Assembly: GCA_038999435.1 (NCBI GenBank)
Contig: JAVZYR010000018.1
Span: forward strand, 1-11,872
Direction: 5' to 3'
DNA length: 11,872 nucleotides
Source: Candidatus Aenigmatarchaeota archaeon
GTDB taxonomy: Archaea; Aenigmatarchaeota; Aenigmatarchaeia; QMZP01
The notes beneath the pieces were generated by a model. It had not been told where the DNA came from, ran no database searches, and worked only from the letters and a program-made list of their open reading frames with translations. The translations under genes and the position numbers were made by a program. This document shows, in pieces, positions 49-11,872 of this stretch. How positions within the stretch are numbered: the stretch's first letter is position 1; every line of letters starts with the position of its first letter.

Positions 49-66
49 TTCGAACCTGCGAAGGCA

Positions 67-97
67 ATGCTTGCAATCCGCGAAGCCGCGGATTGTA
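67..97 (-). other. 31-nt intron in the variable-arm loop of tRNA-Leu(CAG)
   Basis: GCTT-AG^T-ACAATCCGCG...CGCGGATTG-C-AAGC-AT^T: a 4-bp helix GCTT/AAGC between two 3-nt bulges. Removal restores the arm GGC-TTAGT-GCC. Confidence 0.82.
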
Positions 98-192
98 CTA
101 AGCCACACGGCCCTGAACCGTGCCCCTTTGACCACTCGGGCACCCCCGCATAACTATTTTTGATTTAATAAAAATAAGTGCGGGGGGTAGGA

Positions 193-239
193 TTCTCTCT
201 GGAAACCCTCAAGGTTTCCAGCCATCCGGGAGCTGTTTC
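193..239 (-). repeat. Module D1+D2 repeat (copies at 193-239, 854-900, partial 923-965, and 7991-8037 on the + strand)
   Basis: GRAACAGCTMCCGGATG-GCTGGAAACCTTGAGGGTTTCCAGAGAGAA. D2 is identical in all three full copies, and D1 differs by single substitutions. Confidence 0.95.
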
Positions 240-335
240 GTTTCGCTCACAACGCTTCCGGAAGCGGTAAGCTCCCTCACAAAGTCAGACATCATTCAGA
301 GCATTTATGCTCGGTGCGCGTCTGGCTTTGTGTTT

Positions 336-368
336 CCGCGAGCGCTTTCTTCTTGAAAGAAAGGGCTC
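336..368 (-). repeat. Module A hairpin repeat (copies at 15-47, 336-368, 695-727 and, lacking AAG, 7930-7959 on the + strand)
   Basis: GAGCCCTTTCTTTCAAGAAGAAAGCGCTCGCGG is identical in three copies and has a 3-nt deletion in the fourth. It folds as GAGC-C-CTTTCTT/AAGAAAG-C-GCTC. Confidence 0.95.
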
Positions 369-387
369 ATTCGAACCTACGAAGGCA

Positions 388-853: not shown

Positions 854-997
854 TTCTCTCTGGAAACCCTCAAGGTTTCCAGCCATCCGGGAGCTGTTCC
901 GCTTCGCTCCACAACGCTTCCACTCTGGAAACCCTCAAGGTTTCCAGCCATCCGGGAGCTGTTCCGCTTCGCACGCTTTTTTGCCTTAAAGCGTGCA
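854..997 (-). other. 144-nt composite T-loop (59/60) intron of tRNA-Ser(CGA)
   Basis: TTCG-AA^TGCACG...AGAG-AA^T-CC. Its 3' 47 nt match the ends of the Leu(TAG) and Glu(CTC) introns, and it contains an internal 50-nt duplication. Confidence 0.85.
858..972. repeat. Perfect 50-nt direct repeat (858-907 and 923-972) inside the Ser intron
   Basis: ctctggaaaccctcaaggtttccagccatccgggagctgttccgcttcgc occurs twice, 15 nt apart. Confidence 0.95.
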
Positions 998-1066
998 TTC
1001 GAACCTGCACGGGCCGAAGCCCACTCGCTCTCGAGGCGAGCGCATTCACCATTCTGCCACCCTGGC

Positions 1067-1094
1067 AATTAATTATAAGATATTTAGATTTAAT
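1067..1094. promoter_or_regulatory. Putative back-to-back promoters for tRNA-Ser (-) and ncsA (+)
   Basis: A 28-nt, almost purely AT spacer between divergent starts, with TATA-like stretches on both strands and no Shine-Dalgarno sequence. Confidence 0.5.
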
Positions 1095-2012
1095 ATGAAA
1101 TGTGAATGCGGCAGAAAAGCAATCATACATCGCCATTACGAAGGTTCTGCGCTCTGCCCCCGACATTTTATTCTATCATTTGAAAAAAGGATAAAGAAAA
1201 CAATAAGAAGATACAATATGTTGAAATCAGGTGATAGGATTGCTGTAGCTATTTCTGGTGGTGCAGACAGCTTAAGCCTTCTGAATGTTATGCATAAAAT
1301 TGTTTCACCAAGGCATGATATGAATATGTTTGCGGTATGCATAGATGAGGGTATAAAGGGCTACAGGGATGTAACAATAAAAAGGGCAAAAAGATTTTGC
1401 AAAAGGCTTGGGATAGAATTACATATTGCAAGCTTTGCTGATACATTTGGAAGGACAATGGACCAAAAAGTTTCTGAAGTTGGAAAAGAAAATGCATGCA
1501 TGTATTGTAGCATAGGTCGGAGATGGCTATTAAACAGGACTGCACGGGAACTTGGTGCTACTCGAATTGCAACAGGACATAATCTAAATGATGAAGCAGA
1601 GACAATCCTGATGAATTGGATAAGAGGTGATATTGCAAGGGCTGCACGATATGGAGCAATTACTGATTTAACCCTTACAAAGACGAAAACAAAATTGCTC
1701 ATCCCAAAAATAAAACCACTAAGAGAGACGCCTGAAAATGAGTGCACACTCTATGCAAAACTTAAAAAAATGGGCACCACAAGGCGGGTATGTCCATACA
1801 AAAGTGGTATAAGGCGTGATGTGTGGATTTTTTTGAGAAAATTTGAGAAAAAGCATCCTGGAACAAACTTTTCTATTCTTCACACATTTGACAAAATCCT
1901 TCCTCTGCTAAGAGAATATTCAGAAAGTATTGAAGGACCTGTAATGACATGTGATAAATGTGGTGAAATTTCAGCACAACCTGTATGCAGGCGCTGTCAG
2001 TTATGGCCTTAA
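1095..2012 (+). CDS. ncsA: tRNA 2-thiolation protein, TtuA/Ncs6/NcsA family (PP-loop ATPase)
   Basis: N-terminal Zn finger (CEC...CPRH), PP-loop SGGADS, CMYC, GHNLND, KPLR...E, CPY and C-terminal CDKC...CRRC. Start moved to ATG 1095 because the upstream ORF part overlaps tRNA-Ser. Confidence 0.88.
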   Translation: MKCECGRKAIIHRHYEGSALCPRHFILSFEKRIKKTIRRYNMLKSGDRIAVAISGGADSLSLLNVMHKIVSPRHDMNMFAVCIDEGIKGYRDVTIKRAKRFCKRLGIELHIASFADTFGRTMDQKVSEVGKENACMYCSIGRRWLLNRTARELGATRIATGHNLNDEAETILMNWIRGDIARAARYGAITDLTLTKTKTKLLIPKIKPLRETPENECTLYAKLKKMGTTRRVCPYKSGIRRDVWIFLRKFEKKHPGTNFSILHTFDKILPLLREYSESIEGPVMTCDKCGEISAQPVCRRCQLWP

Positions 2013-2384
2013 CATTACCCTGCCTGCAATCCTCCAATAATCAATCTCCTGTCCTGCTGTGATTTTACCTTTAAGTTCTTCAGGTATGGTAACCTCGAAA
2101 ACAGAGTAGTCTGTCATATCCATAAGCTGTGCAATATTTTCAGAAACAGAAAGAACCTGGGCCTTTTTCTTTTCTATTACAGGTACCATCACAGTTGCTG
2201 ATGTTGGTTTTAGTATATAATGCCTTTTGTTATCAAAGAGCCCCATACACTCTATTCTTGCTTTTGTCGAGCCATGCTTTCCTGGCTTTGAAATTGTTAT
2301 TGAAACAACCCTACATGGCTCGCCATCTGCCATTACATAGTTTCCCTCATTTAGATCTTTGACAGGGACTGGTTTTTCTGCCAT
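2001..2384 (-). CDS. eif5a: Translation factor aIF5A
   Basis: Hypusination loop KPGKHGSTKAR, followed by IEKKKAQVLSV...QLMD; 127 aa. Overlaps the ncsA 3' end convergently by 12 nt. Confidence 0.96.
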   Translation of the reverse strand: MAEKPVPVKDLNEGNYVMADGEPCRVVSITISKPGKHGSTKARIECMGLFDNKRHYILKPTSATVMVPVIEKKKAQVLSVSENIAQLMDMTDYSVFEVTIPEELKGKITAGQEIDYWRIAGRVMLRP

Positions 2385-2408
2385 ATGATATTTTGCCTTA
2401 AACTATAT

Positions 2409-3314
2409 TTAAAGAAAAGGTGACAGGAGCAATGGGAGTATAACCGTTGCATCCCCTTCTATCGTTACATGTTTTGCTTTTGGGCTTATCTTTCCCCATG
2501 ATATCGCCTCTCTCGTTCTTGCACCTGAAAGGCTACCATCCCATTCTACTGCTGTTGTGACATAAACTGCTGCATCAAGCCCACCTGAAAATTGAGACCA
2601 CCATATCACATGATGTTTTGAGATACCACCACCTACAATCAGCGCGCCTTTTTTTTCTTTTCCTAACATCTTTGAAAGAAGGAATTTTTCATCAAGCCAA
2701 ACATCGACATTAAAATCTGGCCTATCTTGTCTGAAAAGGGTTATCTGAAAGCCAACTGCACCATCTGTTATACCTGGCACAATGACGGGTATTTTATTTT
2801 TCCATGCCCAATATAATATCGAATCCTTATTCAATTGCTTGCCAATTTCCCAGCAAAGCTCATATGTAGAAAGGGTCTTTTTTTCTTTGTAAATCTGTTC
2901 CAATATTGGCTGAAGCCTTTTCTCAATAATTTCACCATAGCTTTTATCTGGAACAAATATGTTGCCAAGCCTTGATATGCCTTCTTTTCTTAACTTTACA
3001 TCATCTGCCATAAAACTGCCTTGAAGATATGGCCTAAAGCTACGTGCCAAATCGTGGTCTATTGTACCGCATGTTGTAATGATAAGATTAAAAAGCCCTT
3101 TTTTGACACAATCTTTAATGAGCCCTCTAATACCTGTTGCAACAATGCAGGCAGGAAATGATAGCACCCTTATATCATAGCGAGATATATCTTTCAATGT
3201 ACTAAAACCATCTGCAATTCCTTTTGCTACAAACCCACCTGCCTTTTTGTATTCTTCTAAAAGTTGTTCTATTGTAGTTTGTCTATTTATGGATATGTCA
3301 TTTACCTTTTTCAT
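2409..3314 (-). CDS. dys: Deoxyhypusine synthase
   Basis: Motifs RLGNIFVP, PGITDGAVG, GGGISKHH and DGSLSGARTREAISWGK (catalytic Lys); adjacent to aIF5A. Confidence 0.96.
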   Translation of the reverse strand: MKKVNDISINRQTTIEQLLEEYKKAGGFVAKGIADGFSTLKDISRYDIRVLSFPACIVATGIRGLIKDCVKKGLFNLIITTCGTIDHDLARSFRPYLQGSFMADDVKLRKEGISRLGNIFVPDKSYGEIIEKRLQPILEQIYKEKKTLSTYELCWEIGKQLNKDSILYWAWKNKIPVIVPGITDGAVGFQITLFRQDRPDFNVDVWLDEKFLLSKMLGKEKKGALIVGGGISKHHVIWWSQFSGGLDAAVYVTTAVEWDGSLSGARTREAISWGKISPKAKHVTIEGDATVILPLLLSPFL

Positions 3315-4083
3315 AAAAATGATAACTTAATATTTTTTTAAAAAGGTTTGCAGCAGTGCATGCAGTAATGCATCCAACCTTATCAGCTGAACATTCAACG
3401 ATGTCAAAACCAATTATACCAAGTCGGCATATCCTTTTTATCATATTAAGCATATCTGTATAGCCAAGTCCTGCAGGCTCTGGTGTGCCTACATCAGGTG
3501 CTATGCTTGGGTCAAGGACATCAAGATCGATTGTAAGATAGACAGGTCCCTTTTTTGGTAGACCTACAATTGCTGGCCTTTCCTCTTCATTCCATGCCCT
3601 ACATGAAGGCTGATAAACATCACACATCTTTGATGCATGCCATGCCCATGTTAGATGCGCAAATTTATTTCCCATCCAATCGGGTAGCATATCTCTGTGT
3701 GCATCCATATGCACAACTGTTTTTGGTTTTAATGCCTTGATTATAGCAAGGGTTACAAGATGGTCTCCTCCAAAAAATACTGGTAAGCCACTGCTCTGCT
3801 CTCTTGCTTCTTTTATCGTCTCGATAATTCTCTCCTCTGTTATCGCCCAATCACCCTGCACAATATCAACATCTCCAAGGTCACAGAATTTTAGCTTTAG
3901 CGGATTGAATTGCATTTTTGTGTCGAAACCAATAAGACCTTTTATTGCCTCCCTAATTAGCACAGGGCCATATCTTGTTGGTCTCCCTGTTGATGTAGAA
4001 TCCCATGGTATGCCAAGAATCCATACATCTGCCTCTTTCAGGGGCCATTCAAAATCAAATGTTTTCTTTGTATAGAGCATCAT
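3298..4083 (-). CDS. speB: Agmatinase / ureohydrolase-family protein
   Basis: Metal-binding motifs GGDH, DAHRD, TIDLDVLDP and GTPEPAG, plus N-terminal GIPWDSTS...YGP. Confidence 0.88.
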   Translation of the reverse strand: MMLYTKKTFDFEWPLKEADVWILGIPWDSTSTGRPTRYGPVLIREAIKGLIGFDTKMQFNPLKLKFCDLGDVDIVQGDWAITEERIIETIKEAREQSSGLPVFFGGDHLVTLAIIKALKPKTVVHMDAHRDMLPDWMGNKFAHLTWAWHASKMCDVYQPSCRAWNEEERPAIVGLPKKGPVYLTIDLDVLDPSIAPDVGTPEPAGLGYTDMLNMIKRICRLGIIGFDIVECSADKVGCITACTAANLFKKILSYHFYEKGK

Positions 4084-4655
4084 TTCATTATCCTTTCTTT
4101 TACAGAGTTGAAATGTGATACAATGTCTTCGGGTTTCATTGAATGTAGATATTCAGAGAAATACCTTTTGTACTTTTCAGGTTCTGTCTTCATCTTTTCA
4201 GCCCACTTTGCGATATGCTCACCTCTTAATCTCTCCTCACTTGGCAGTATCTCAGGTGAATGAGGAATAGCAATGCCTGCATCCAAAATGCCCTTCAGCA
4301 CAGCATATATCCTCGTGCCTTTTACATTATCATAAAGGCCTGTATCTAAAATGCCTCTTTTTATTCCCTTTTCTTTTGCCCTTTTGCCTACAAGAAGGCC
4401 GACAAGATATGCAGCTGGTATGTTTCCGCATGCAACCTTCCATCCAAACTGCTTTAATTGGCATGAATGTGCACTTGTAATGACAATATCACCCTCCGTT
4501 CTATGCTCAATGACCTGGCATAAAATGTTTCGATTTGACCTTCTTACAACAAACCTTGGTAGACCTGATTTTAGAAGCTTTAACCTTGTTCTGTAATCTG
4601 TTTTTCCTTCTCTTCTTCTCCTATGCGGAACGCGATACTTTGGCCCTCCTTTCAT
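4080..4655 (-). CDS. rpl18: 50S ribosomal protein L18 (uL18, archaeal type)
   Basis: GPKYRVPHRRRREGKTDYRTRLKLL, GNIPAAYLVG, RLRGEHI; AGGTGAG ribosome-binding site upstream. Confidence 0.96.
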   Translation of the reverse strand: MKGGPKYRVPHRRRREGKTDYRTRLKLLKSGLPRFVVRRSNRNILCQVIEHRTEGDIVITSAHSCQLKQFGWKVACGNIPAAYLVGLLVGKRAKEKGIKRGILDTGLYDNVKGTRIYAVLKGILDAGIAIPHSPEILPSEERLRGEHIAKWAEKMKTEPEKYKRYFSEYLHSMKPEDIVSHFNSVKERIMK

Positions 4656-5103
4656 GTTTGCTCACCTTTTTTGCCTTTATCATATCAGCTTTTCTTGCAT
4701 ATAATAGAAGGTGTTGCTTTGTTCTGAAAGCACCACCTTTTGCCATTTTATAAAGCTTATTATATGCCTCCTTTGATATCATGTCCTTTGCTCTCAAATC
4801 TGATAAAAGTCGGCGAAGGGCCCTTATCCTTTTTATCCATTGCTGTTTCTTGACTGCACGGACCCCTTTTCTGCTTCCTGGCCCTTTACGTCTCCCTCGT
4901 TGTTTTTGTTCTGTCCTTTTTTTAGAGAATGCTTTAGATGTTCCCTTTGCCTGAATTTTGTAGATAATACCTTTTCTAATAAGCCTTCTTATATCCTCCC
5001 TTGTAAGCGCTTCTGCTACTTCTTTTTCAGATTTTATCCTAACCCTTGATATACCGCATTTGAGTATCTGTGCAGCAATTCTTTTTTGAGCAAGATATGC
5101 CAT
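4621..5103 (-). CDS. rpl19e: 50S ribosomal protein L19e
   Basis: QKRIAAQILKCGISRV, TREDIRRLI, GRRKGPGSRKG, WIKRIRALRR, LYKMAKGGAF; GGAGGTGA ribosome-binding site. Confidence 0.96.
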   Translation of the reverse strand: MAYLAQKRIAAQILKCGISRVRIKSEKEVAEALTREDIRRLIRKGIIYKIQAKGTSKAFSKKRTEQKQRGRRKGPGSRKGVRAVKKQQWIKRIRALRRLLSDLRAKDMISKEAYNKLYKMAKGGAFRTKQHLLLYARKADMIKAKKVSKHERRAKVSRSA

Positions 5104-5681
5104 TATTCACCTCCAAAGTCTTTTATGCTGTGTGTGAATTCAGCTTCCTTTTTTATCTTTTTATTTGTTTTTAGAATCTCTCTTGCAATTATCCACAGCG
5201 CAAGTGCGATACTTTTTTTTGCATTGTTATTCATTGGAATTATCAAATCTATATCATTTACTTCATTAAAGCTGTTAGCAAGTGCTAGAATTGGAATATG
5301 TTTCTTCTTTGCCTCTTTTATGGCCTGTGCATCAAGCATAGGATCTGTTACAAACACAACATCTGGCTCAAAAAAATTGTTAAATGAAGGGTTTGTTAAT
5401 GTTCCAGGAGGGAATCTACCTGTTATTGCCTTTGCACCAATAACCTCAGCAAATTTTTTTACTGGCTGGATAGCAGACTCCTTTCTTGCAACGATCAAAG
5501 GCTTTTGAAAACATGAAAGCCATCTCCCTGCTATGCCAAACCTCTCGTCTATCTTTTTAAGATTAAATATTATAAGCCCATCTTCTCTTATTTTGTATAC
5601 AAACTGCTTAAGATAAGGTGTACACGTTTTCATACCTATATGCACACCTGCACTGAGATATTCCTTTCTTTCTACCAGCAT
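5103..5681 (-). CDS. rps2: 30S ribosomal protein S2 (uS2)
   Basis: YLSAGVHIG, GRFPPGTLTNP, EPDVVFVTDP...DAQAIKEA, DLIIPMNN; GGAGG ribosome-binding site. Confidence 0.96.
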   Translation of the reverse strand: MLVERKEYLSAGVHIGMKTCTPYLKQFVYKIREDGLIIFNLKKIDERFGIAGRWLSCFQKPLIVARKESAIQPVKKFAEVIGAKAITGRFPPGTLTNPSFNNFFEPDVVFVTDPMLDAQAIKEAKKKHIPILALANSFNEVNDIDLIIPMNNNAKKSIALALWIIAREILKTNKKIKKEAEFTHSIKDFGGE

Positions 5682-5715
5682 ATGACCTCCAGAATAGATT
5701 ATTTAAAAAATCATT

Positions 5716-6852
5716 TTATAAATTTGCCATTGTTGGTTTTTTGAATTGAGACCATAGTGCAAGAAGCCTGTTAAACTTTGGCATGTCATTCATACCAAAT
5801 TTTGCTATCTTTGCACGCCAAGCAACAGCCAAATCTGCTATCCAGAAGTCCTCTGTCTCATGCGAACGGTGTGATGGTATAATCTCCCATTCTGCAGACC
5901 TTGCAATACTAACTGCCTTCATTGCCGATGTAAGTGTTCCAACTTGATTTGGCTTTATTATAATCCCATTTGCAGCTTTTTCCTTTACACCACGTCGAAC
6001 CAAGCTCGGATTTGTGCAGAAAATATCATCGCCAACAATGAGTGCTGATTTGCATGCCTTTTTAAGTGCTTTAAATTCAGAAAATGTCACGCATGGGTCC
6101 TCGATGTAAAATATCTTATATCTCCTTATCATATCAGCAATAAAATCTAAATGTCTATCAGGGCTAAGAAGCTTCCACATTGCTTTGTAAGCGTATTTGT
6201 TGCCATCCCATAGCCGAGATGAAGCGCAATCTATGCCAAGCCTTACACCCCAATCATCTGCAATCTCAGATAAAAAATCAAGCGTTTTTATATCATCGAG
6301 TTTTGCCATCCATGCACCCTCTATGTTTTGACCAAGCAGCAGGCCTCTTCTCTTAAGCTCATCACCAATAACATGCCATATCTCTATACCAAGCCTTATA
6401 TCATCAACAAGCTCACCTGTTTTCGGAAGTATGAGAAATTCTTGCCAATCTGTTTTTCCTCCATGTGCACCTCCCCCAATTACATTGATAAGTGGATGTG
6501 GAAATGTACCTGTTCTTTTTTCTCCTTCAATCTTCCATAGTTCGCCACCAAATCTTGCCCTTGCAGCAGCGATAGATAGGGCTAAAGCCAAATTCCCACC
6601 AATTCTTGAGATGCCAAGCCTTTCAAAAACATCATCAATCTCTGGCCATACCTTTCCTTTTATTGCTGCCTTTATCTCTGAAATATTTTTTTCTATCTCT
6701 CTCATCGGCGCTGCTCTGACTTCATGTACACCTTTTGATGTCCCAAAAGGCACAGAAGCAGTCCACCATCTTCCTTTTATTTTTACAGCAGCCTCTATAC
6801 TTTCCTTCCTACTTGTGCAAAAAACGGTTCTTATTTTTATATCTGAAATCAT
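5716..6852 (-). CDS. eno: Enolase (short, divergent)
   Basis: VPFGTSKGVHE, GGAHGG..WQEF, GIDCASS, YIEDP, VGDD, IIIKPNQVG, SHRSHETED; sits in the usual rpoK-eno-rps2 position. Confidence 0.85.
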   Translation of the reverse strand: MISDIKIRTVFCTSRKESIEAAVKIKGRWWTASVPFGTSKGVHEVRAAPMREIEKNISEIKAAIKGKVWPEIDDVFERLGISRIGGNLALALSIAAARARFGGELWKIEGEKRTGTFPHPLINVIGGGAHGGKTDWQEFLILPKTGELVDDIRLGIEIWHVIGDELKRRGLLLGQNIEGAWMAKLDDIKTLDFLSEIADDWGVRLGIDCASSRLWDGNKYAYKAMWKLLSPDRHLDFIADMIRRYKIFYIEDPCVTFSEFKALKKACKSALIVGDDIFCTNPSLVRRGVKEKAANGIIIKPNQVGTLTSAMKAVSIARSAEWEIIPSHRSHETEDFWIADLAVAWRAKIAKFGMNDMPKFNRLLALWSQFKKPTMANL

Positions 6853-6854
6853 AT

Positions 6855-7052
6855 TCAGCCAGGATACCTTCTTTTAATATCTATCGGTATTACCTCTGCT
6901 TCCCACTCAAGTTTTGCAATCTCAAGTGGGTCTGTAATCCCTTTTGGTACTTTTACAAGAACAGGGCTACCTTGTGCAATCTGAAGGGCCCTGGCTGCAA
7001 TTATCCTTACCTTCTCATACTTTGTGTAGCTATCTTTTGACCTCATAATCAT
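6855..7052 (-). CDS. rpoK: DNA-directed RNA polymerase subunit Rpo6/K
   Basis: YTKYEKVRIIAARALQIAQGSPVLV...DPLEIAKLE...IPIDIKR; ATGA overlap with the upstream stop codon. Confidence 0.95.
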   Translation of the reverse strand: MIMRSKDSYTKYEKVRIIAARALQIAQGSPVLVKVPKGITDPLEIAKLEWEAEVIPIDIKRRYPG

Positions 7053-7831
7053 CCTATGTATCTTAGCTGCTCTTTTTTTACAGGAGGTCTTTCTTCCTCT
7101 TTTGCAAGCTGTGATATTGCCTTTTCTTGTAACTCTTGTATCTTTTTTATCAACCTTTCCATCTCTTTTACCCTTTTATCAAGTTTTGACATATCAATCT
7201 TAATTTCAAGAATCTTTGAAAGTATATTTAGGACTGCCTCAGCAGCTCTCGGATCAGCAACGATAGGAAAGCCTGATGTCTCACCAAGTAGACAAAGGCC
7301 ATCTATACCTCTTTGTTTACCAAGACCAAGAAGTATGCCAGCAGCACCAACAATATAGCCAACCTTTTCACTTGTATTGAAGTTTATACCAAATTCCTTA
7401 TATTTTTCAACAATAGATTTGTCTGTTGCCGCACCATAGACACGCGGCTTTTCCTCTATCTCTCCTGTTGCAAGGCCGCCAACTGTAATTATTTCTTTTA
7501 CACCAATTTTTTGTGCCAAGTCAACAATTTTTTCCATAACCTCATAGTGACCCTGTGATGTCATAGACTGGCAATCACCTGTCACAAATACAACATCACG
7601 TTTACCTTTTAGATAATAAAATTTGACTTTCAAAAGCCTTATCTCCCATTTTTCATGTATTACAACGAATGGAAAGAAATGTTCAGAGTAAAGTTCTGCA
7701 AAGAGCTTTGCACCTGTTTCTTGAATTATATAATCAACACATATCCGACCAACATTTCCAATCCCTGGTAAACCTTCTACAAGCAATGGATTTTGGAGTT
7801 TTGGTTGCTCAAAAATATTCAGCGTTGTCAT
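7049..7831 (-). CDS. PAC2-family (proteasome assembly chaperone-like) protein
   Basis: LVEGLPGIGNVG, TGDCQ, ITVGG, IVGAAGILLG, CLLGET...DPRAA and C-terminal YIG. Start moved to ATG 7831 because the longer ORF runs through tRNA-Glu. Confidence 0.88.
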   Translation of the reverse strand: MTTLNIFEQPKLQNPLLVEGLPGIGNVGRICVDYIIQETGAKLFAELYSEHFFPFVVIHEKWEIRLLKVKFYYLKGKRDVVFVTGDCQSMTSQGHYEVMEKIVDLAQKIGVKEIITVGGLATGEIEEKPRVYGAATDKSIVEKYKEFGINFNTSEKVGYIVGAAGILLGLGKQRGIDGLCLLGETSGFPIVADPRAAEAVLNILSKILEIKIDMSKLDKRVKEMERLIKKIQELQEKAISQLAKEEERPPVKKEQLRYIG

Positions 7832-7867
7832 GTATTTGAATATAATTTCTATATATAAAAATACAAT
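7832..7867. promoter_or_regulatory. Putative divergent promoters for PAC2 (-) and tRNA-Glu(CTC) (+)
   Basis: Minus-strand TTTATATA at 7859-7852 (-28 to -21 from the ATG, so probably a leaderless mRNA). Plus-strand AATATAAT at 7839-7846 (-29 to -22 from tRNA G+1). Confidence 0.55.
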
Positions 7868-8051
7868 GCCCCCGTGGTGTAGTCCGGTTAAGCATCCAGG
7901 CCTCTCGAGCCTGAGACGCGGGTTCAAATGAGCCCTTTCTTTCAAGAAAGCGCTCGCGGGCACGCTTCCGGAAGCGTTGTGGAGCGAAGCGAAACAGCTA
8001 CCGGATGGCTGGAAACCTTGAGGGTTTCCAGAGAGAATCCCGCCGGGGGCA
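7868..8051 (+). tRNA. tRNA-Glu(CTC) with a 109-nt T-loop intron (7929-8037)
   Basis: Acceptor GCCCCCG/CGGGGGC+A, anticodon arm CAGGC-CT CTC GA-GCCTG, T-stem GCGGG/CCCGC. 184-109 = 75 nt. Confidence 0.93.
7929..8037 (+). other. 109-nt composite T-loop (59/60) intron of tRNA-Glu(CTC): modules A'-C'-D1-D2
   Basis: TTCA-AA^TGAGCCC...AGAG-AA^T-CC, with the same modules as the Leu and Ser introns about 7 kb away. Confidence 0.85.
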
Positions 8052-8094
8052 AAATCTTAACAATGAAGTTATATTTTTAGAAACAAAATTAAAT

Positions 8095-8856
8095 ATGCCA
8101 TACAATCATGCCAGGGCATGGCTTGAGGCAAAAGCTGAATCAGCAGCACCAAAACCGATTCCTCCAAATAAGATTGCAATCATATCAGATATACATTCAA
8201 ATCTTGATGCATTAGATGCTGTGCTTAAAGAGATAAAGGAGAGTAAATGTCAGCTCATTTTATGTACAGGTGATATCATAGGTTATGCCACAGAGTGCAA
8301 TGAATGCTGTGAGATTGTAAAGAAAAATGCACATGTAATTGTTCAAGGCAATCATGATGCAAATGTTGACTTTCGGCGCATTGAATGGTTTAATCCTGAA
8401 GCAGCTGCAGCACTTAGATGGACTGAGGCAAAGCTGACAAGACCAAACAAGGCATGGCTTCTTGGACTTCCTGTTGAATGGTATGGGCAAATATTAGGGA
8501 GAAAGATATACATGGTGCATGGTAGCCCATATGACCAGTTATATGGCTATGTAATGCCAAATACCGACAGGCATACATTCAGAAAATGGCTAAATGAAAA
8601 AAGGGCACACATCATCATCATGGGCCATACACACATCCCTTTTGTTGAAAAGATGGAGCAAGGCCTGATAATAAATGCAGGTTCTGTTGGACAGCCAAGG
8701 GATGGCAATCCAAAGGCATGTTGGATAGAGCTGATACTTGATAAACTTGAAGCAAAGATACACAGGGTTAGCTATAACATAGAAATGACCGCTGAAAAAA
8801 TCCTTGAGCAAAACCTGCCTGCATGGCTTGCTGAGCGGCTTTATGATGGTTTGTGA
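8095..8856 (+). CDS. Calcineurin-like metallophosphoesterase (YfcE/MJ0936-like)
   Basis: ISDIHSN, CTGDIIGY, QGNHD, MVHGSP, GHTHIP, NAGSVGQPRDG. Start moved to ATG 8095 because the longer ORF begins inside the tRNA intron. Confidence 0.88.
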   Translation: MPYNHARAWLEAKAESAAPKPIPPNKIAIISDIHSNLDALDAVLKEIKESKCQLILCTGDIIGYATECNECCEIVKKNAHVIVQGNHDANVDFRRIEWFNPEAAAALRWTEAKLTRPNKAWLLGLPVEWYGQILGRKIYMVHGSPYDQLYGYVMPNTDRHTFRKWLNEKRAHIIIMGHTHIPFVEKMEQGLIINAGSVGQPRDGNPKACWIELILDKLEAKIHRVSYNIEMTAEKILEQNLPAWLAERLYDGL

Positions 8857-8909
8857 TAATTGAATTCCTAAGAAATAGTTTTTTATCAAGCTTTAAATAA
8901 ATACATTTT

Positions 8910-9491
8910 ATGAAAACAATTGAAAATTTAGCAAAGGCGTTTATTGGTGAAAGCCAAGCAAGAAATAGATACACATTCTATTCTAAGATTGCCAAAAAGG
9001 AGGGATTTGAGCAAATAGCAGAAATTTTTCTAATTACAGCAGAAAATGAGAGAGAGCATGCAAGTTGGCTGTTTAGATTGATTAATGAATTAAAGAAAAG
9101 GGGTAAAGAAAATCTAAAAGAGATAAAGGTTGATGCAACAGTTCCAACTATTCTTGGCACAACTATTGAAAATCTAAAGGCGGCAATTGCTGGAGAAAAT
9201 TATGAATACACCAAGATGTATCCAGAATTTGCCAATGTTGCTGAAAAAGAAGGATTTACAGATATTGCAAAAAGATTACGGGCAATCGCTAGGGCAGAAG
9301 AGCATCATGAGGAGAGATTCAAAAAACTTCTAAAAGTGGTTGAATCAGGAACGGTATTTAAAAAGGAAAAAGAGGTCTGGTGGGTTTGTCGTGAATGTGG
9401 ATATGTTCACTTTGGAAAACAGCCGCCTGAGAAATGCCCATCCTGTGACCATAAAAGAAGTTTTTACCAAATTAAATGTGAGGAATATTAG
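8910..9491 (+). CDS. rbr: Rubrerythrin
   Basis: [39 protein letters not shown] and a C-terminal rubredoxin-like CRECG...CPSC. Confidence 0.96.
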
Positions 9492-9494
9492 CTT

Positions 9495-9869
9495 ATGACA
9501 GAACAAAAGCAAATCTATAAGTGCAATATATGCGGAAATATAGTTGAGGTGCTACATCCTGGAGTAGGGCAGCTTGTATGTTGTGGACAACCAATGCAAC
9601 TTATGAAAGAGAATACAACTGATGTTGGTAAAGAAAAACATGTTCCTGTGATTGAGAAAACGGCAAATGGGATAAAAGTAAAAGTTGGCTCTATAGCACA
9701 TCCTATGGAAGAAAGGCACTATATTGAATGGATAGAAATAATCGCTGATGGCAGGGCTTGTAAAATTTTCTTAAAGCCGGGAAATAGGCCAGAGGCAGAG
9801 TTTAAAATAAAAGCAGAAAAGATTGTGGCGAGAGAATATTGCAATGTTCACGGTTTGTGGAAATCATAG
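9495..9869 (+). CDS. dfx: Desulfoferrodoxin (2Fe superoxide reductase)
   Basis: YKCNICGN...[31 protein letters not shown]. Confidence 0.96.
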
Positions 9870-9926
9870 CCAACCTAATTGAATTTTTAATACTAATTAC
9901 AAATTTAATATGGGCCCGTAGCTCAG

Positions 9927-9955
9927 AGTTGGTCGTGTCTGCGGTCAACGAGCAT
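9927..9955 (+). other. 29-nt D-loop (15/16) intron of tRNA-Ile(GAT)
   Basis: GCTC-AG^A-GTTGGTCGT-GTCT-GCGGTCAAC-GAGC-AT^T-GG: a 4-bp helix between two 3-nt bulges. Confidence 0.85.
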
Positions 9956-9977
9956 TGGTTAGAGCACCACGCTGATA

Positions 9978-10006
9978 TCTTTCTCAAATAAATAGAATGG
10001 TTTGAA
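9978..10006 (+). other. 29-nt canonical (37/38) intron of tRNA-Ile(GAT)
   Basis: CTGA-TA^T...TTTG-AA^A-CGTGG, a relaxed BHB. Removal restores a 7-nt anticodon loop. Confidence 0.82.
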
Positions 10007-10045
10007 ACGTGGGGGTCGTGAGTTCGATTCTCACCGGGCCCATTT

Positions 10046-11872
10046 TCATGGCCATTTTTCCGCTTTTTCTGTCATTACATATACTACGCCACCTGTCAGA
10101 CCAACTGCTATAGATACTCCAACACCTGCACCAAATGTCGTAAGTGCGACATCAGCAATTAATGTTGCTACAAAAACAACCTTTGTCCATGTAGCAGGTT
10201 CTGAATAGCAAAAGTTATGATCTTCAACCTCATTTTTTTCCGGTCTTAGGTAGATAGCTGGTGTTTTGCATCTATCCATTGTAAACAAGTTTGCCTTTCC
10301 ACCGCTTATATCAGCAAGTCCTATTGTGGTATTTTCAGGAAAATCTCCGACTCCTCCTTTTATAAATTGTATCTGAAGATAGTCCCATGTTGTATCACTT
10401 GTCATGTTTTTGAAGACTAGTATGGTTGTCGGATAATACTTATATGCTATACCATATCCACTGGGTACTACTGTTCGGAACTGTTCTTCGCAACCCCAAT
10501 CTAAAAAATAATTGACATCATCATTGTATAGATACACCTTTTCCTCCCCACTCATGTTTATATCTATGCATGACCTTTTGTTAGGGAAGAACCAATACCT
10601 TTCTTCATCTTTCCACATAGAAACCTCTGCAGACCTTATGCAAATCTTATTATTTCCTTCTGAGCAATCAGTAGAAAATTTATAGCCTTCTATGATGATC
10701 TCGTTTGCTTTTATGCTGTTTGTTGGTTTGACTTCAATGATATCTTTTTCTCTTTTATCTTTCACGGTCTGTATTAGCGATTTTATTTGATCTGGAGACT
10801 TCAATTGTCCTTTGGGTTCTTTTCGAAGTTCATCGCAACTTATGCTTTTATATGGTTCTGGGTTTTCTGAGATAACACTTTCACATGTATCGTTTGGATA
10901 TATATCAAGAATGATATTTCCTGTGCTTGTATTATATATGTAAATTCTGTATACCCTGTCCTTGTTTAGTATGTATGTATCTCTCCATAAAACATTTTTC
11001 AGCTCAAGCTTTTCATTAATCCACAATCTTGCTGTGCCACTAGTTTCAGGCATATCTGTGAGATAGCCATCAAGCCAAGGTATGTTTATCTTTTTTTCTT
11101 CAAAAAATGACATATCACCTTTAATTATGCTGTCTATTTTATCATAAATCGGTGTTATGCTTTGGCTGTCCACAATATCTTTTGAAAAGTTGCATTCAGG
11201 CAAACCAAATGCAAGCTCTGTCCATATTGAAGAGTTGCAATAAACTGTTCCTTCAAGCGCATCATAGCCGTACTGTTCACATTTTGCCCAATCCTCTTTT
11301 ATTGTTATGTTTGCAGAGCATGGCGAGGCAAGATAGAAATTTACATGTCCTTTTATGTCTGAAGTTAGCCCTGGCTTATCCAGCAAAACAGGTTTTGTTG
11401 CTGTGTTTATAGACTCTGTATCAAGGTCTTTATATGGCCTTTTCAGGACAAGGTTTCCAGGTTGAGGTATGTATTTCTCATTTACGCTATCTATCCATGC
11501 AGCAACAAGCGCTGATGTTGTTGCCACACCTGCAACCTTCATAATTTTTTTTACATTTTTTAAACTTTCTAGTTTATTTTTTATGGCATTAAAGAGAGTA
11601 ATATCTGCCTCTTTAAGCCCCTCAAGAGCTGCTCTTCTCTCTAATTTCTCAGCAGAACGGCTAAAAACAGCAATAACCTTTTGAGACACACCTTTTTCTG
11701 TAAGATGCCCAGAGATCCTCTTAAACATCTTTGCTCCTGCCTTTGTTAGGCTTGTAGAAACCTTTTCAACAGTCCCAACCAAAACCCTTTCAGCGCCTTT
11801 TTTTATCACCTTTCCTGCCCTGCCAACAGGTATTGCAAAAAGAATGATTGTGCCTAAGTCTTTAAGCCATGT
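10046..11872 (-). CDS. Large hypothetical membrane-anchored/surface protein, N-terminus beyond the window
   Basis: The frame stays open from 11872 (TWLKDLGTIILFAIPVGRAGKVIKK...), giving >600 aa. Hydrophobic segments VAGVATTSALVAAWI and C-terminal VVFVATLIADVALTTFGAGVGVSIAVGLTGGVVYVM flank a region with scattered Cys. No family recognised. Confidence 0.7.
   Translation of the reverse strand, partial: TWLKDLGTIILFAIPVGRAGKVIKKGAERVLVGTVEKVSTSLTKAGAKMFKRISGHLTEKGVSQKVIAVFSRSAEKLERRAALEGLKEADITLFNAIKNKLESLKNVKKIMKVAGVATTSALVAAWIDSVNEKYIPQPGNLVLKRPYKDLDTESINTATKPVLLDKPGLTSDIKGHVNFYLASPCSANITIKEDWAKCEQYGYDALEGTVYCNSSIWTELAFGLPECNFSKDIVDSQSITPIYDKIDSIIKGDMSFFEEKKINIPWLDGYLTDMPETSGTARLWINEKLELKNVLWRDTYILNKDRVYRIYIYNTSTGNIILDIYPNDTCESVISENPEPYKSISCDELRKEPKGQLKSPDQIKSLIQTVKDKREKDIIEVKPTNSIKANEIIIEGYKFSTDCSEGNNKICIRSAEVSMWKDEERYWFFPNKRSCIDINMSGEEKVYLYNDDVNYFLDWGCEEQFRTVVPSGYGIAYKYYPTTILVFKNMTSDTTWDYLQIQFIKGGVGDFPENTTIGLADISGGKANLFTMDRCKTPAIYLRPEKNEVEDHNFCYSEPATWTKVVFVATLIADVALTTFGAGVGVSIAVGLTGGVVYVMTEKAEKWP

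Follow-up and report, generated by a model that had tools for sequence, protein, structure and literature searches.

A family of modular introns common to tRNA and 23S rRNA genes in a Candidatus Aenigmatarchaeota genome, with signs of recent spread

In Thermoproteales, families of introns are shared among tRNA genes (Fujishima et al., 2010, as described in PMC4090602 and 10.64898/2026.10.13.758758). According to the passages on this point in 10.64898/2026.10.13.758758, 12.5% of Thermoproteales introns fall into families with at least 90% identity, against 0.2% in Asgard lineages, and the route by which the Asgard tRNA introns arrived remains open. A different aspect is known from ARMAN-2 (Candidatus Micrarchaeum acidiphilum): its splicing endonuclease, an epsilon2 enzyme given as PDB 4FZ2 in the relevant part of PMC3488258, cut a 13-nucleotide (nt) intron with a relaxed motif at position 59/60 in vitro, as described in the corresponding part of PMC3239211. 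Here, we describe an insert of 109 nt in the tRNA-Glu(CTC) gene of a Candidatus Aenigmatarchaeota archaeon (GenBank assembly GCA_038999435.1; 549 kb, 30 contigs, 86% complete, about 38% G+C). The DNA stretch analyzed, called the window below, is the entire contig JAVZYR010000018.1 of this genome (C18 of G000; 11,872 nt). With a probability of roughly 0.7, the insert is an intron without an open reading frame (ORF) at position 59/60 and belongs to a species-specific family of modular introns that spread recently among non-homologous stable-RNA genes, in places probably replacing or enlarging short older introns.

The tRNA-Glu(CTC) gene is located at 7868-8050 on the plus strand, as delimited by a scan for acceptor and T-stem pairing. 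Its 5′ exon (7868-7928, nt 1-59) ends in the T-loop with TTCAAA, and its 3′ exon (8038-8050) consists of nt 60, the 3′ strand of the T-stem and that of the acceptor stem. The segment 7929-8037 (109 nt) is inserted exactly between nt 59 and nt 60 in the T-loop, and its excision gives back a T-stem of five base pairs (bp) with a 7-nt T-loop (GCGGG-TTCAAAT-CCCGC). The fold of the complete pre-tRNA has a z-score of -4.18 relative to shuffled sequences. In terms of the modules described below, which were delimited by repeat search, module map and folds, the architecture of the insert is A-C-D. The module A hairpin (7930-7959), 3 nt shorter than the other A copies, begins one base past the putative 5′ cleavage site and is followed by the module C hairpin (7960-7981), a short-loop variant, and by module D (7982-8031), which comprises the D1 hairpin with a linker (7982-8008) and the D2 hairpin (8009-8031). 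The junction scan and the folds place the 3′ splice context at 8032-8038, where the tail AGAG is predicted to pair with T54, T55, and C56 and is followed by a bulge, AA|T, whose T is nt 60 of the tRNA.

The modules of this insert recur at 96-100% identity in the tRNA-Ser(CGA), tRNA-Leu(TAG), and tRNA-Leu(CAG) genes, about 7 kb off on the opposite strand. They are visible as inverted repeats, with arms at 847-921 and 7970-8044 (75 nt, 96% complementary) and at 190-248 and 7982-8040 (59 nt, 97% complementary), and a 32-nt stretch of the intron 3′ end is present in the window in three exact copies and one copy with three mismatches, the expectation from 200 shuffles being zero. For mapping by BLAST, reference modules were cut by coordinates from two long introns. 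The resulting map agrees with the strings of units given in an initial annotation of the sequence, namely A-C-D for Glu, A-B-C-D for Leu(TAG), E-D-C-D for Ser, and a Leu(CAG) intron starting with A. The same annotation had called the last 47 nt nearly alike in genes with dissimilar exons, and this also holds: the identity of the Glu tail is 0.96 to that of Ser(CGA) (two substitutions) and 0.98 to that of Leu(TAG) (one substitution), and in 78 pairs of 13 introns the terminal 47 nt have a mean identity of 97.3%, versus 68% for the acceptor and T-arm parts of the host exons.

The family extends over the whole genome. tRNA genes were collected by a scan for GTTC together with stems of 7 bp (acceptor) and 5 bp (T-stem), a stricter filter that replaced looser scans giving 11,266 and 826 rows; 33 complete genes were kept out of 43 rows, and the other ten were dropped by eye, as alternative pairings across two genes or as rows without tRNA features. 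An insert at 59/60 is found in 25 of the 33 genes, with lengths of 11-306 nt, and its removal always restores a 7-nt T-loop. Seventeen of these 25 introns, together with the truncated one of tRNA-Leu(CAG), are built of common modules with 90-100% identity, the family being made of about eight hairpin modules (A, L, B, H1, H2, K, C, and D). The host tRNAs are Pro(CGG), Pro(TGG), Ser(TGA), Ser(CGA), Ala(GGC), Gln(TTG), Leu(GAG), Leu(TAA), Leu(TAG), Leu(CAG), His(GTG), Lys(TTT), Ile(TAT), Arg(TCT), Thr(CGT), Thr(TGT), Glu(CTC), and the initiator; the identities were read from the anticodon arms, and a few are tentative in genes with several introns. Module A is present in 25 copies in the genome, D in 15, L in 10, H1, H2, and C in five each, B in four, and K in three. 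With a minimum coverage of 60% of a module, 72 matches were obtained, all of them within tRNA or 23S rRNA genes, and the copies are in the sense orientation of the host gene, as read by eye from the matches. In the clearest pair, the introns of tRNA-Ser(TGA) and tRNA-Thr(TGT), located on different contigs, are identical at 117 of 117 positions.

The T-loop is not the only site. The D-loop intron of tRNA-Val(TAC) is an A-L unit alone, and that of tRNA-Val(GAC) starts with A. Furthermore, an intron of about 208 nt in the 5′ part of the 23S rRNA gene is composed of A-L-A-B-L and a private tail, and its removal restores a conserved sequence that is uninterrupted in two related genomes, G002 and G012. 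The D-loop and 23S copies have 5′ modules in common with the T-loop introns, and their tails are different. The sites occupied by the family are the T-loops of 18 tRNA genes, the D-loops of two, and one 23S rRNA site. The inserts, hairpin chains of 109-306 nt, have no ORF, and no Rfam family, including the group I and group II ribozyme cores, was detected in the introns of the window at E values up to 1. The initial annotation had proposed a recently multiplied, tRNA-targeting family common to unrelated tRNA genes. The pair with 117 identical positions, the absence of the modules from a genome of the same genus (see below) and the new D-loop and 23S sites bear out this proposal, except that “tRNA-targeting” turns out to be too narrow, the 23S rRNA gene being occupied as well.

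Module A stands first in 14 of the 17 complete family introns (15 of 18 with Leu(CAG)), and module D stands last in 13 of the 17. The order is collinear everywhere: A, an optional L-A, then H/K or B/L units, and then C and D. Five T-loop introns and the 23S intron contain the arrangement A-L-A, which is also found within the intron of tRNA-Leu(TAA); the Ser(CGA) and Lys(TTT) introns contain C-D-C-D. D copies in one intron have the same A/G variant, introns of other genes differ in it, and the joint from D to C is at an 8-nt word, TTCCAGAG, found in the D2 end and in the long C loop. Tandem D copies that are alike and joined at a shared word point to duplication in place, as unequal recombination or slippage would give. 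The H1, H2, and C hairpins have one common stem with different loops, and most units end in GCTTCC, so that modules can recombine at microhomologies. Probably, short repeated words let the introns lengthen by tandem duplication and shorten by deletion, while the terminal modules would be retained as neighbors of the cleavage sites; constant ends around a variable middle would reflect this position rather than a 5′-to-3′ record of insertions. For A-L-A, nested introns spliced sequentially were also considered and rejected; one candidate was found, in tRNA-Arg(TCT), but the other joints, judged by eye, do not match, and the outer motif suffices.

Judged from sequence, the T-loop and 23S junctions conform to a relaxed form of the bulge-helix-bulge (BHB) motif. 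The T-stem would be the outer helix, and the central helix would be formed between the intron tail and the near-invariant T54-T55-C56(-R57). A 3-nt bulge containing the 3′ cut would comprise nt 60 and the two final intron bases, and the 5′ cut would fall two bases past the central helix, directly ahead of hairpin A. Indeed, in all 25 T-loop introns the four bases just ahead of the final two can form three or more pairs with T54-R57, and in eight of them all four, and the mismatch in the central helix, where present, is always at R57. As a background, 21.7% of 2922 interior 4-mers reach three of four pairs. The mean number of pairs is 3.32 at the motif register and 0.5-2.5 after sliding the window by 1-8 bases. 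The 13 introns not ending in AGAG, which are largely independent sequences, all pass the pairing test. Tails are AGAG in some introns and TGAA or CGAA in others, and in tRNA-Pro(TGG) the D tail is altered to TGAA, which pairs perfectly with the TTCA loop of that tRNA. The minimum free energy (MFE) folds of minihelices of His(GTG), Val(GAC), and Leu(GAG) combine the T-stem with a helix of 4-5 bp and, on the 3′ strand, a 3-nt AAU bulge, with the 5′ site in a loop and hairpin A directly after it. In the 23S intron, a 12-bp helix joins the ends, the central helix has three of four pairs, and AA|A is found at both sites. An unrestricted scan for relaxed BHB motifs gave too many candidates to be specific, and the motif was applied only at known junctions. 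The docking sequence being the near-invariant T-loop, a single 3′ tail is suited to every tRNA; such docking would explain both the hotspot at 59/60 and the conservation of the two terminal modules.

Enzymes for the removal of such introns are encoded in the genome. The C-terminal fragment of EndA (174 amino acids; positions 3-527 on the plus strand of contig C7, L014) can be aligned over its full length with residues 219-387 of PDB 4fz2 (E = 4e-55), with Y236, H251, and K282 of the catalytic triad matched. The gene is cut by the contig start, so that its last 174 codons are present. RtcB is encoded as well (E = 1.5e-171). The predicted protein is a close homologue of the broad-specificity, three-unit (epsilon2) endonuclease, and the inserts are probably ORF-less archaeal introns removed by the splicing endonuclease and RtcB. 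The idea in the initial annotation that the elements are harmless because they are spliced out is plausible in view of the relaxed BHB junctions and these two enzymes. The ORF at position 532, after EndA, looks by eye like a family B DNA polymerase in translation.

Outside this genome, little trace of the family was found. Following a check suggested in the initial annotation, the modules were compared by BLAST with the genome and its relatives, giving a genome-wide family and no convincing match in relatives: the Glu(CTC) intron, with its modules A, C, and D, is absent from 40 other genomes of the genus, family, and order except for one marginal 27-nt match (E = 0.002). Exact-pattern scans, which would miss diverged copies, returned nothing related from genome and metagenome collections (two metagenome scans with 0 matches). 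One exact 21-nt match in a metagenome-assembled genome of unrelated Verrucomicrobia was judged to be due to chance. Introns at 59/60 do exist in relatives; they are 30-67 nt long (one is 163 nt) and unrelated in sequence to the modules. The gene cluster Ser-Val-Val-Glu-Leu-Leu, present in the window, is kept in a family-level relative.

The most informative relative is the same-genus genome G001, in which 28 tRNA genes were found, 19 without a T-loop intron and nine with one of 10-49 nt. Orthologs were matched by eye, the automatic pairing being cruder and containing some mis-pairs. The first 40 nt of tRNA-Glu(CTC) are identical in both genomes, and the intron is 12 nt in G001 versus 109 nt here; the corresponding lengths are 10 and 178 nt in Pro(CGG), 36 and 124 nt in Leu(GAG), and 38 and 144 nt in Ser(CGA). 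Ala(GGC), Thr(CGT), Thr(TGT), Arg(TCT), Gln(TTG), and the initiator Met have no T-loop intron in G001. The D-loop is uninterrupted in Val(TAC) of G001 and in Val(GAC) of three family-level relatives, and the 23S site is uninterrupted in G002, G012, and, from the spacing of high-scoring segment pairs, G003; the 23S site query gave no match in G001 and G029. The sites being empty or holding mini-introns in G001, the modules being absent there and two copies agreeing at 117 of 117 positions, these comparisons indicate a recent, species-specific burst after the split from G001, which would have filled empty sites and replaced or enlarged mini-introns.

The spread of this family is in some respects like that in Thermoproteales, where, in the passages cited at the beginning, the introns are bounded by BHB motifs, the host endonuclease has broad specificity and the mechanism is unknown. 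The features that mark such families are found here too: near-identical introns occur across isoacceptors of one genome (18 genes) and copies occur at different tRNA positions (59/60 and D-loop), plus the 23S rRNA gene. In contrast to what those passages describe, the host is a small-genome archaeon whose endonuclease is epsilon2-like instead of (alpha-beta)2, the introns are long, reaching 306 nt, and are pieced together from recurring modules with tandem duplications, and 18 of 34 genes belong to one family with 90-100% identity, compared with 12.5% of introns. Sharing of modules between tRNA and rRNA genes is not stated in the literature passages on the Thermoproteales families that were consulted. 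As for ARMAN-2, the position 59/60, a relaxed motif of the bulge-helix-loop type and a closely related endonuclease are in common, whereas the intron tested there, as far as the consulted parts of PMC3239211 and PMC3488258 tell, is unique and 13 nt long, unlike the multi-copy, multibranched hairpin chains of up to 306 nt in this genome. The Asgard archaea, in the part of 10.64898/2026.10.13.758758 devoted to them, likewise have heavily interrupted tRNA genes and repeated gains at motif-capable sites, but copying between tRNA genes is negligible there (0.2% at 90% identity) and dominant here. No description of a modular intron family in Micrarchaeota-like archaea turned up in the open-access literature.

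The 23S copy resembles archaeal rRNA introns, which occur with or without LAGLIDADG genes (PMC4496867), in its long end helix, a central helix of 3-4 bp and AA|A bulges; it differs in having no ORF and in sharing its sequence with tRNA introns, and no LAGLIDADG gene was found in the genome. G012 has instead a separate, ORF-bearing intron about 20 nt downstream. This large 23S intron (contig C2 of G012, L030) contains LAGLIDADG-like motifs by eye, and its first bases hold GGAGCTAAC, the core word of module L; a similar word is seen in a variable-arm intron of a Leu gene of G003.

Other classes of mobile element were compared as well. No intron encodes a LAGLIDADG protein, and the 86%-complete genome has no LAGLIDADG_3 match, which speaks against homing-endonuclease introns; for group I and group II introns or retroelements, no Rfam ribozyme match was obtained in the window and no RVT_1 reverse transcriptase in the genome. 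Miniature inverted-repeat transposable elements (MITEs) have conserved termini, a variable interior with internal deletions, many near-identical copies, and no coding capacity. The present family is like them in its conserved termini, variable interior, near-identical copies, and non-coding nature, but it has no terminal inverted repeats (the ends were read by eye), is confined to stable-RNA genes, and, by eye, is found in the sense orientation only. DNA transposition is not favored either, as all 72 copies are in RNA genes and the genome gave no Y1_Tnp or TnpB-type match, other transposase families not having been searched. The search for a mobilizer proposed in the initial annotation was therefore negative for all of these: reverse transcriptase, Y1 transposase, TnpB, and LAGLIDADG.

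The confinement of the copies to RNA genes could reflect RNA-level targeting or selection for spliceable insertions. As three kinds of site without common exon sequence are occupied, simple exon-guided conversion is unlikely to be the sole route. Most likely, although with low certainty, copies arose by DNA-level copying or conversion between intron-bearing genes combined with slippage in place, rather than by retro-insertion; reverse splicing is a bolder alternative. A still more far-reaching idea, which we put forward as a speculation and think unlikely, is that of a self-propagating splicing parasite without a protein of its own, whose only requirements would be a 5′ hairpin adjoining the cut and a 3′ tail able to pair with the universal T54-C56. 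Such an element might enter the T-loop of any tRNA and, with other tails, D-loops and rRNA. Its route might be the endonuclease and ligase reaction reversed on RNA and then fixed in DNA, or another way of DNA copying, and the accordion of modules would be its evolving body.

Returning to a modular family that spread recently, we weighed it against four other explanations. The 59/60 introns may be old, vertically inherited and merely homogenized by gene conversion, without entry into new sites. Indeed, the position predates the family, as orthologous Ser, Leu, and Glu genes carry 59/60 introns in genomes of the same genus, the same family, and the same order, and four G001 orthologs of family-bearing genes hold a short, unrelated intron there. 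However, six G001 orthologs have no T-loop intron, the D-loop and 23S sites are uninterrupted in relatives, the exon flanks common to T-loop, D-loop, and 23S sites are too short or absent to seed conversion, and no intron of a relative resembles the modules, so that homogenization alone is improbable. Nor do we put much trust in the model of the initial annotation, in which stepwise addition of units at the 5′ splice site, with a 3′ end that stays fixed, would make the array an ordered record of insertions. In favor of this model, A-L stands alone as a D-loop intron, precedes another A in the 23S intron and in five T-loop introns, and does so once within the Leu(TAA) intron, and the four family introns with non-D tails may be remnants of older introns. 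But the polarity assumed there, with a constant 3′ end and a variable 5′ end, is not supported: the 5′ module is about as conserved as the 3′ module (14/17 versus 13/17), and within the window the variable 5′ end hangs on one intron, that of Ser. Duplications occurred on the 3′ side (C-D, in two introns) as well as on the 5′ side (A-L-A), the module order is constant, and the common variants of tandem copies suggest local duplication. A-L-A can equally well collapse to A by deletion between direct repeats, and the change could have run either way. Taken together, an insertion record is quite improbable.

The strong hairpin structure of the modules and the high conservation among copies could alternatively be explained if the intron RNA had a job, as a stable, possibly circular, structured or guide RNA, and spread by selection for dosage; short box C/D-like words in module B, read by eye against the box consensus, would be in line with this. 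Yet no Rfam match was obtained in the introns, no antisense match of 10 nt or more was found between the modules and 16S rRNA or the 5′ part of 23S rRNA, the module content varies freely between genes, and the modules are absent from the congener, while recency explains the conservation equally well; we regard such a function as very improbable. There is also the question of whether collapsed or chimeric repeats were misplaced in tRNA genes by the assembly. The locus is present in four DNA runs (X1-X4) of one hot-spring study. The contig of the window and others end inside modules, and the Logan contigs of these runs break at module borders, none of them bridging an intron; for example, X1 records span 943-7946 and 8018-11872 and end inside modules, with similar spans in the other runs. 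Nevertheless, the introns of 109-117 nt sit inside contigs with unique flanks, and independent contigs reach the exon-module junctions of the Glu intron on both sides in X1 and X4, on the 5′ side in X3 and on the 3′ side in X2, with a depth in module bins of 7-14 times that of the flanks, so that the modules are truly multi-copy and truly adjoin the exons. Furthermore, each insert falls at precisely the 59/60 position and the tRNA around it is intact, an outcome that misassembly would not give 18 times over. An artefact is thus the hardest of these explanations to accept. Independently of this question, a 2147-nt contig in X1 and X4 joins a sequence like the Leu(CAG) exon (window position 110) to the sequence just past the Glu gene (8055) on opposite strands; a further Leu locus, a strain rearrangement, or an artefact of the assembly graph may lie behind this.

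Several observations weigh against our preferred reading of a recently spread intron family. The splicing of the inserts and the cleavage sites are deduced from the DNA. In the D-ended introns, the central helix has three of four pairs only, one of them G·U, and the motif register is 2.4 kcal/mol above an MFE register shifted by two bases, a shift that is due to the GA repeat of the tail. For the two D-loop introns, no convincing BHB motif was found. The N-terminal two thirds of EndA, and with them the three-unit architecture and the specificity loop, lie off the contig. As no Logan contig bridges an intron and the genome is a short-read metagenome assembly that itself breaks inside modules, the internal order is provisional for introns exceeding the length of a read, and identical copies could partly be assembly consensus. 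The mobilizer families searched for gave no match, as described above. Finally, the direction of change, a gain, is derived from copy identity and a few outgroup genes rather than from a rooted reconstruction, and G001 is 71% complete.

A tRNA gene cluster lies on the minus strand within the first 1066 bases of the window. tRNA-Ser(CGA) (841-1066) has a T-loop intron at 854-997 (144 nt) with the architecture H1-D-C-D, containing a 65-nt tandem repeat. The next gene, tRNA-Val(CAC) (769-838), is uninterrupted and was found both by ARAGORN and by the scan. tRNA-Val(GAC) (605-741) carries the D-loop intron starting with module A at about 673-726 and, according to the scan, an 11-nt T-loop mini-intron at 618-628 that is outside the modular family. 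Also outside it is the 18-nt T-loop intron (487-504) of tRNA-Glu(TTC) (474-602), a gene with an apparent further intron in the anticodon region (within 505-602). tRNA-Leu(TAG) (180-470) has a T-loop intron of 177 nt at 193-369 with the architecture A-B-L-C-D. tRNA-Leu(CAG) (1-149) is cut by the contig end, and its T-loop intron starts at 48 with module A, followed by the start of an H hairpin. Since the window is a whole contig and ends within this intron, the break in the assembly falls in the repeat. Both Leu genes also seem to have an additional variable-arm insert (370-470 and 49-149, minus strand). On the plus strand, tRNA-Ile(GAT) (9912-10041), miscalled as Ser(tga) by ARAGORN, has D-loop and anticodon-loop introns, neither of which belongs to the modular family; its ortholog in G001 is 71 nt long without interruption.

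There are further inserts elsewhere in the genome. A second modular intron family, unrelated to the first, was noticed in a 234-nt T-loop intron with an internal repeat (C11:9648-9881). Shorter copies are found in one T-loop intron and one anticodon-region intron (C4:11836-11909 and C1:66786-66811 being among the coordinates) and at both ends of contig C16 (C16:1-170 and C16:13795-13963). This family has a short word, GAGCTA..CCGCTTC, in common with module L. The 16S rRNA gene (C8:1156-2756, minus strand, L016) has two extra segments of 33 and 121 nt relative to the archaeal model, maybe introns or expansions, and neither contains any module of the family. Module B itself, a long irregular hairpin of 54 nt with four copies (window 193-369, C2, C8, and the 23S intron), carries CTGA-A-TGATGT-CTGA, reminiscent of the D′/C′/D words of what we take to be the box C/D consensus; it has no Rfam match.

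Nearly every tRNA gene of this genome is interrupted, and most appear to have two or three introns. ARAGORN calls Val(CAC) only in the window and 10 of at least 34 tRNA genes in the genome, and the Rfam tRNA model is above threshold at 10 places. Standard tRNA finders miss most of the genes, and inferences on genome quality and codon usage would be wrong for such lineages unless introns are modeled. For the family itself, docking of a fixed intron tail on the invariant T-loop of any tRNA is suggested as a rule behind the 59/60 hotspot. The way in which archaea gain tRNA and rRNA introns is not yet settled, and this genome offers an unusually clean case: one family occupies more than half of the tRNA genes found, with identity of up to 100% and three unrelated kinds of site, a congener keeps the empty or mini-intron state, the genome is tiny and has no recognizable mobility enzyme, and the endonuclease is of a type characterized in vitro. 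If the speculation of a splicing parasite were true, this genome would catch a burst in progress, and the arrival of introns would become experimentally tractable.

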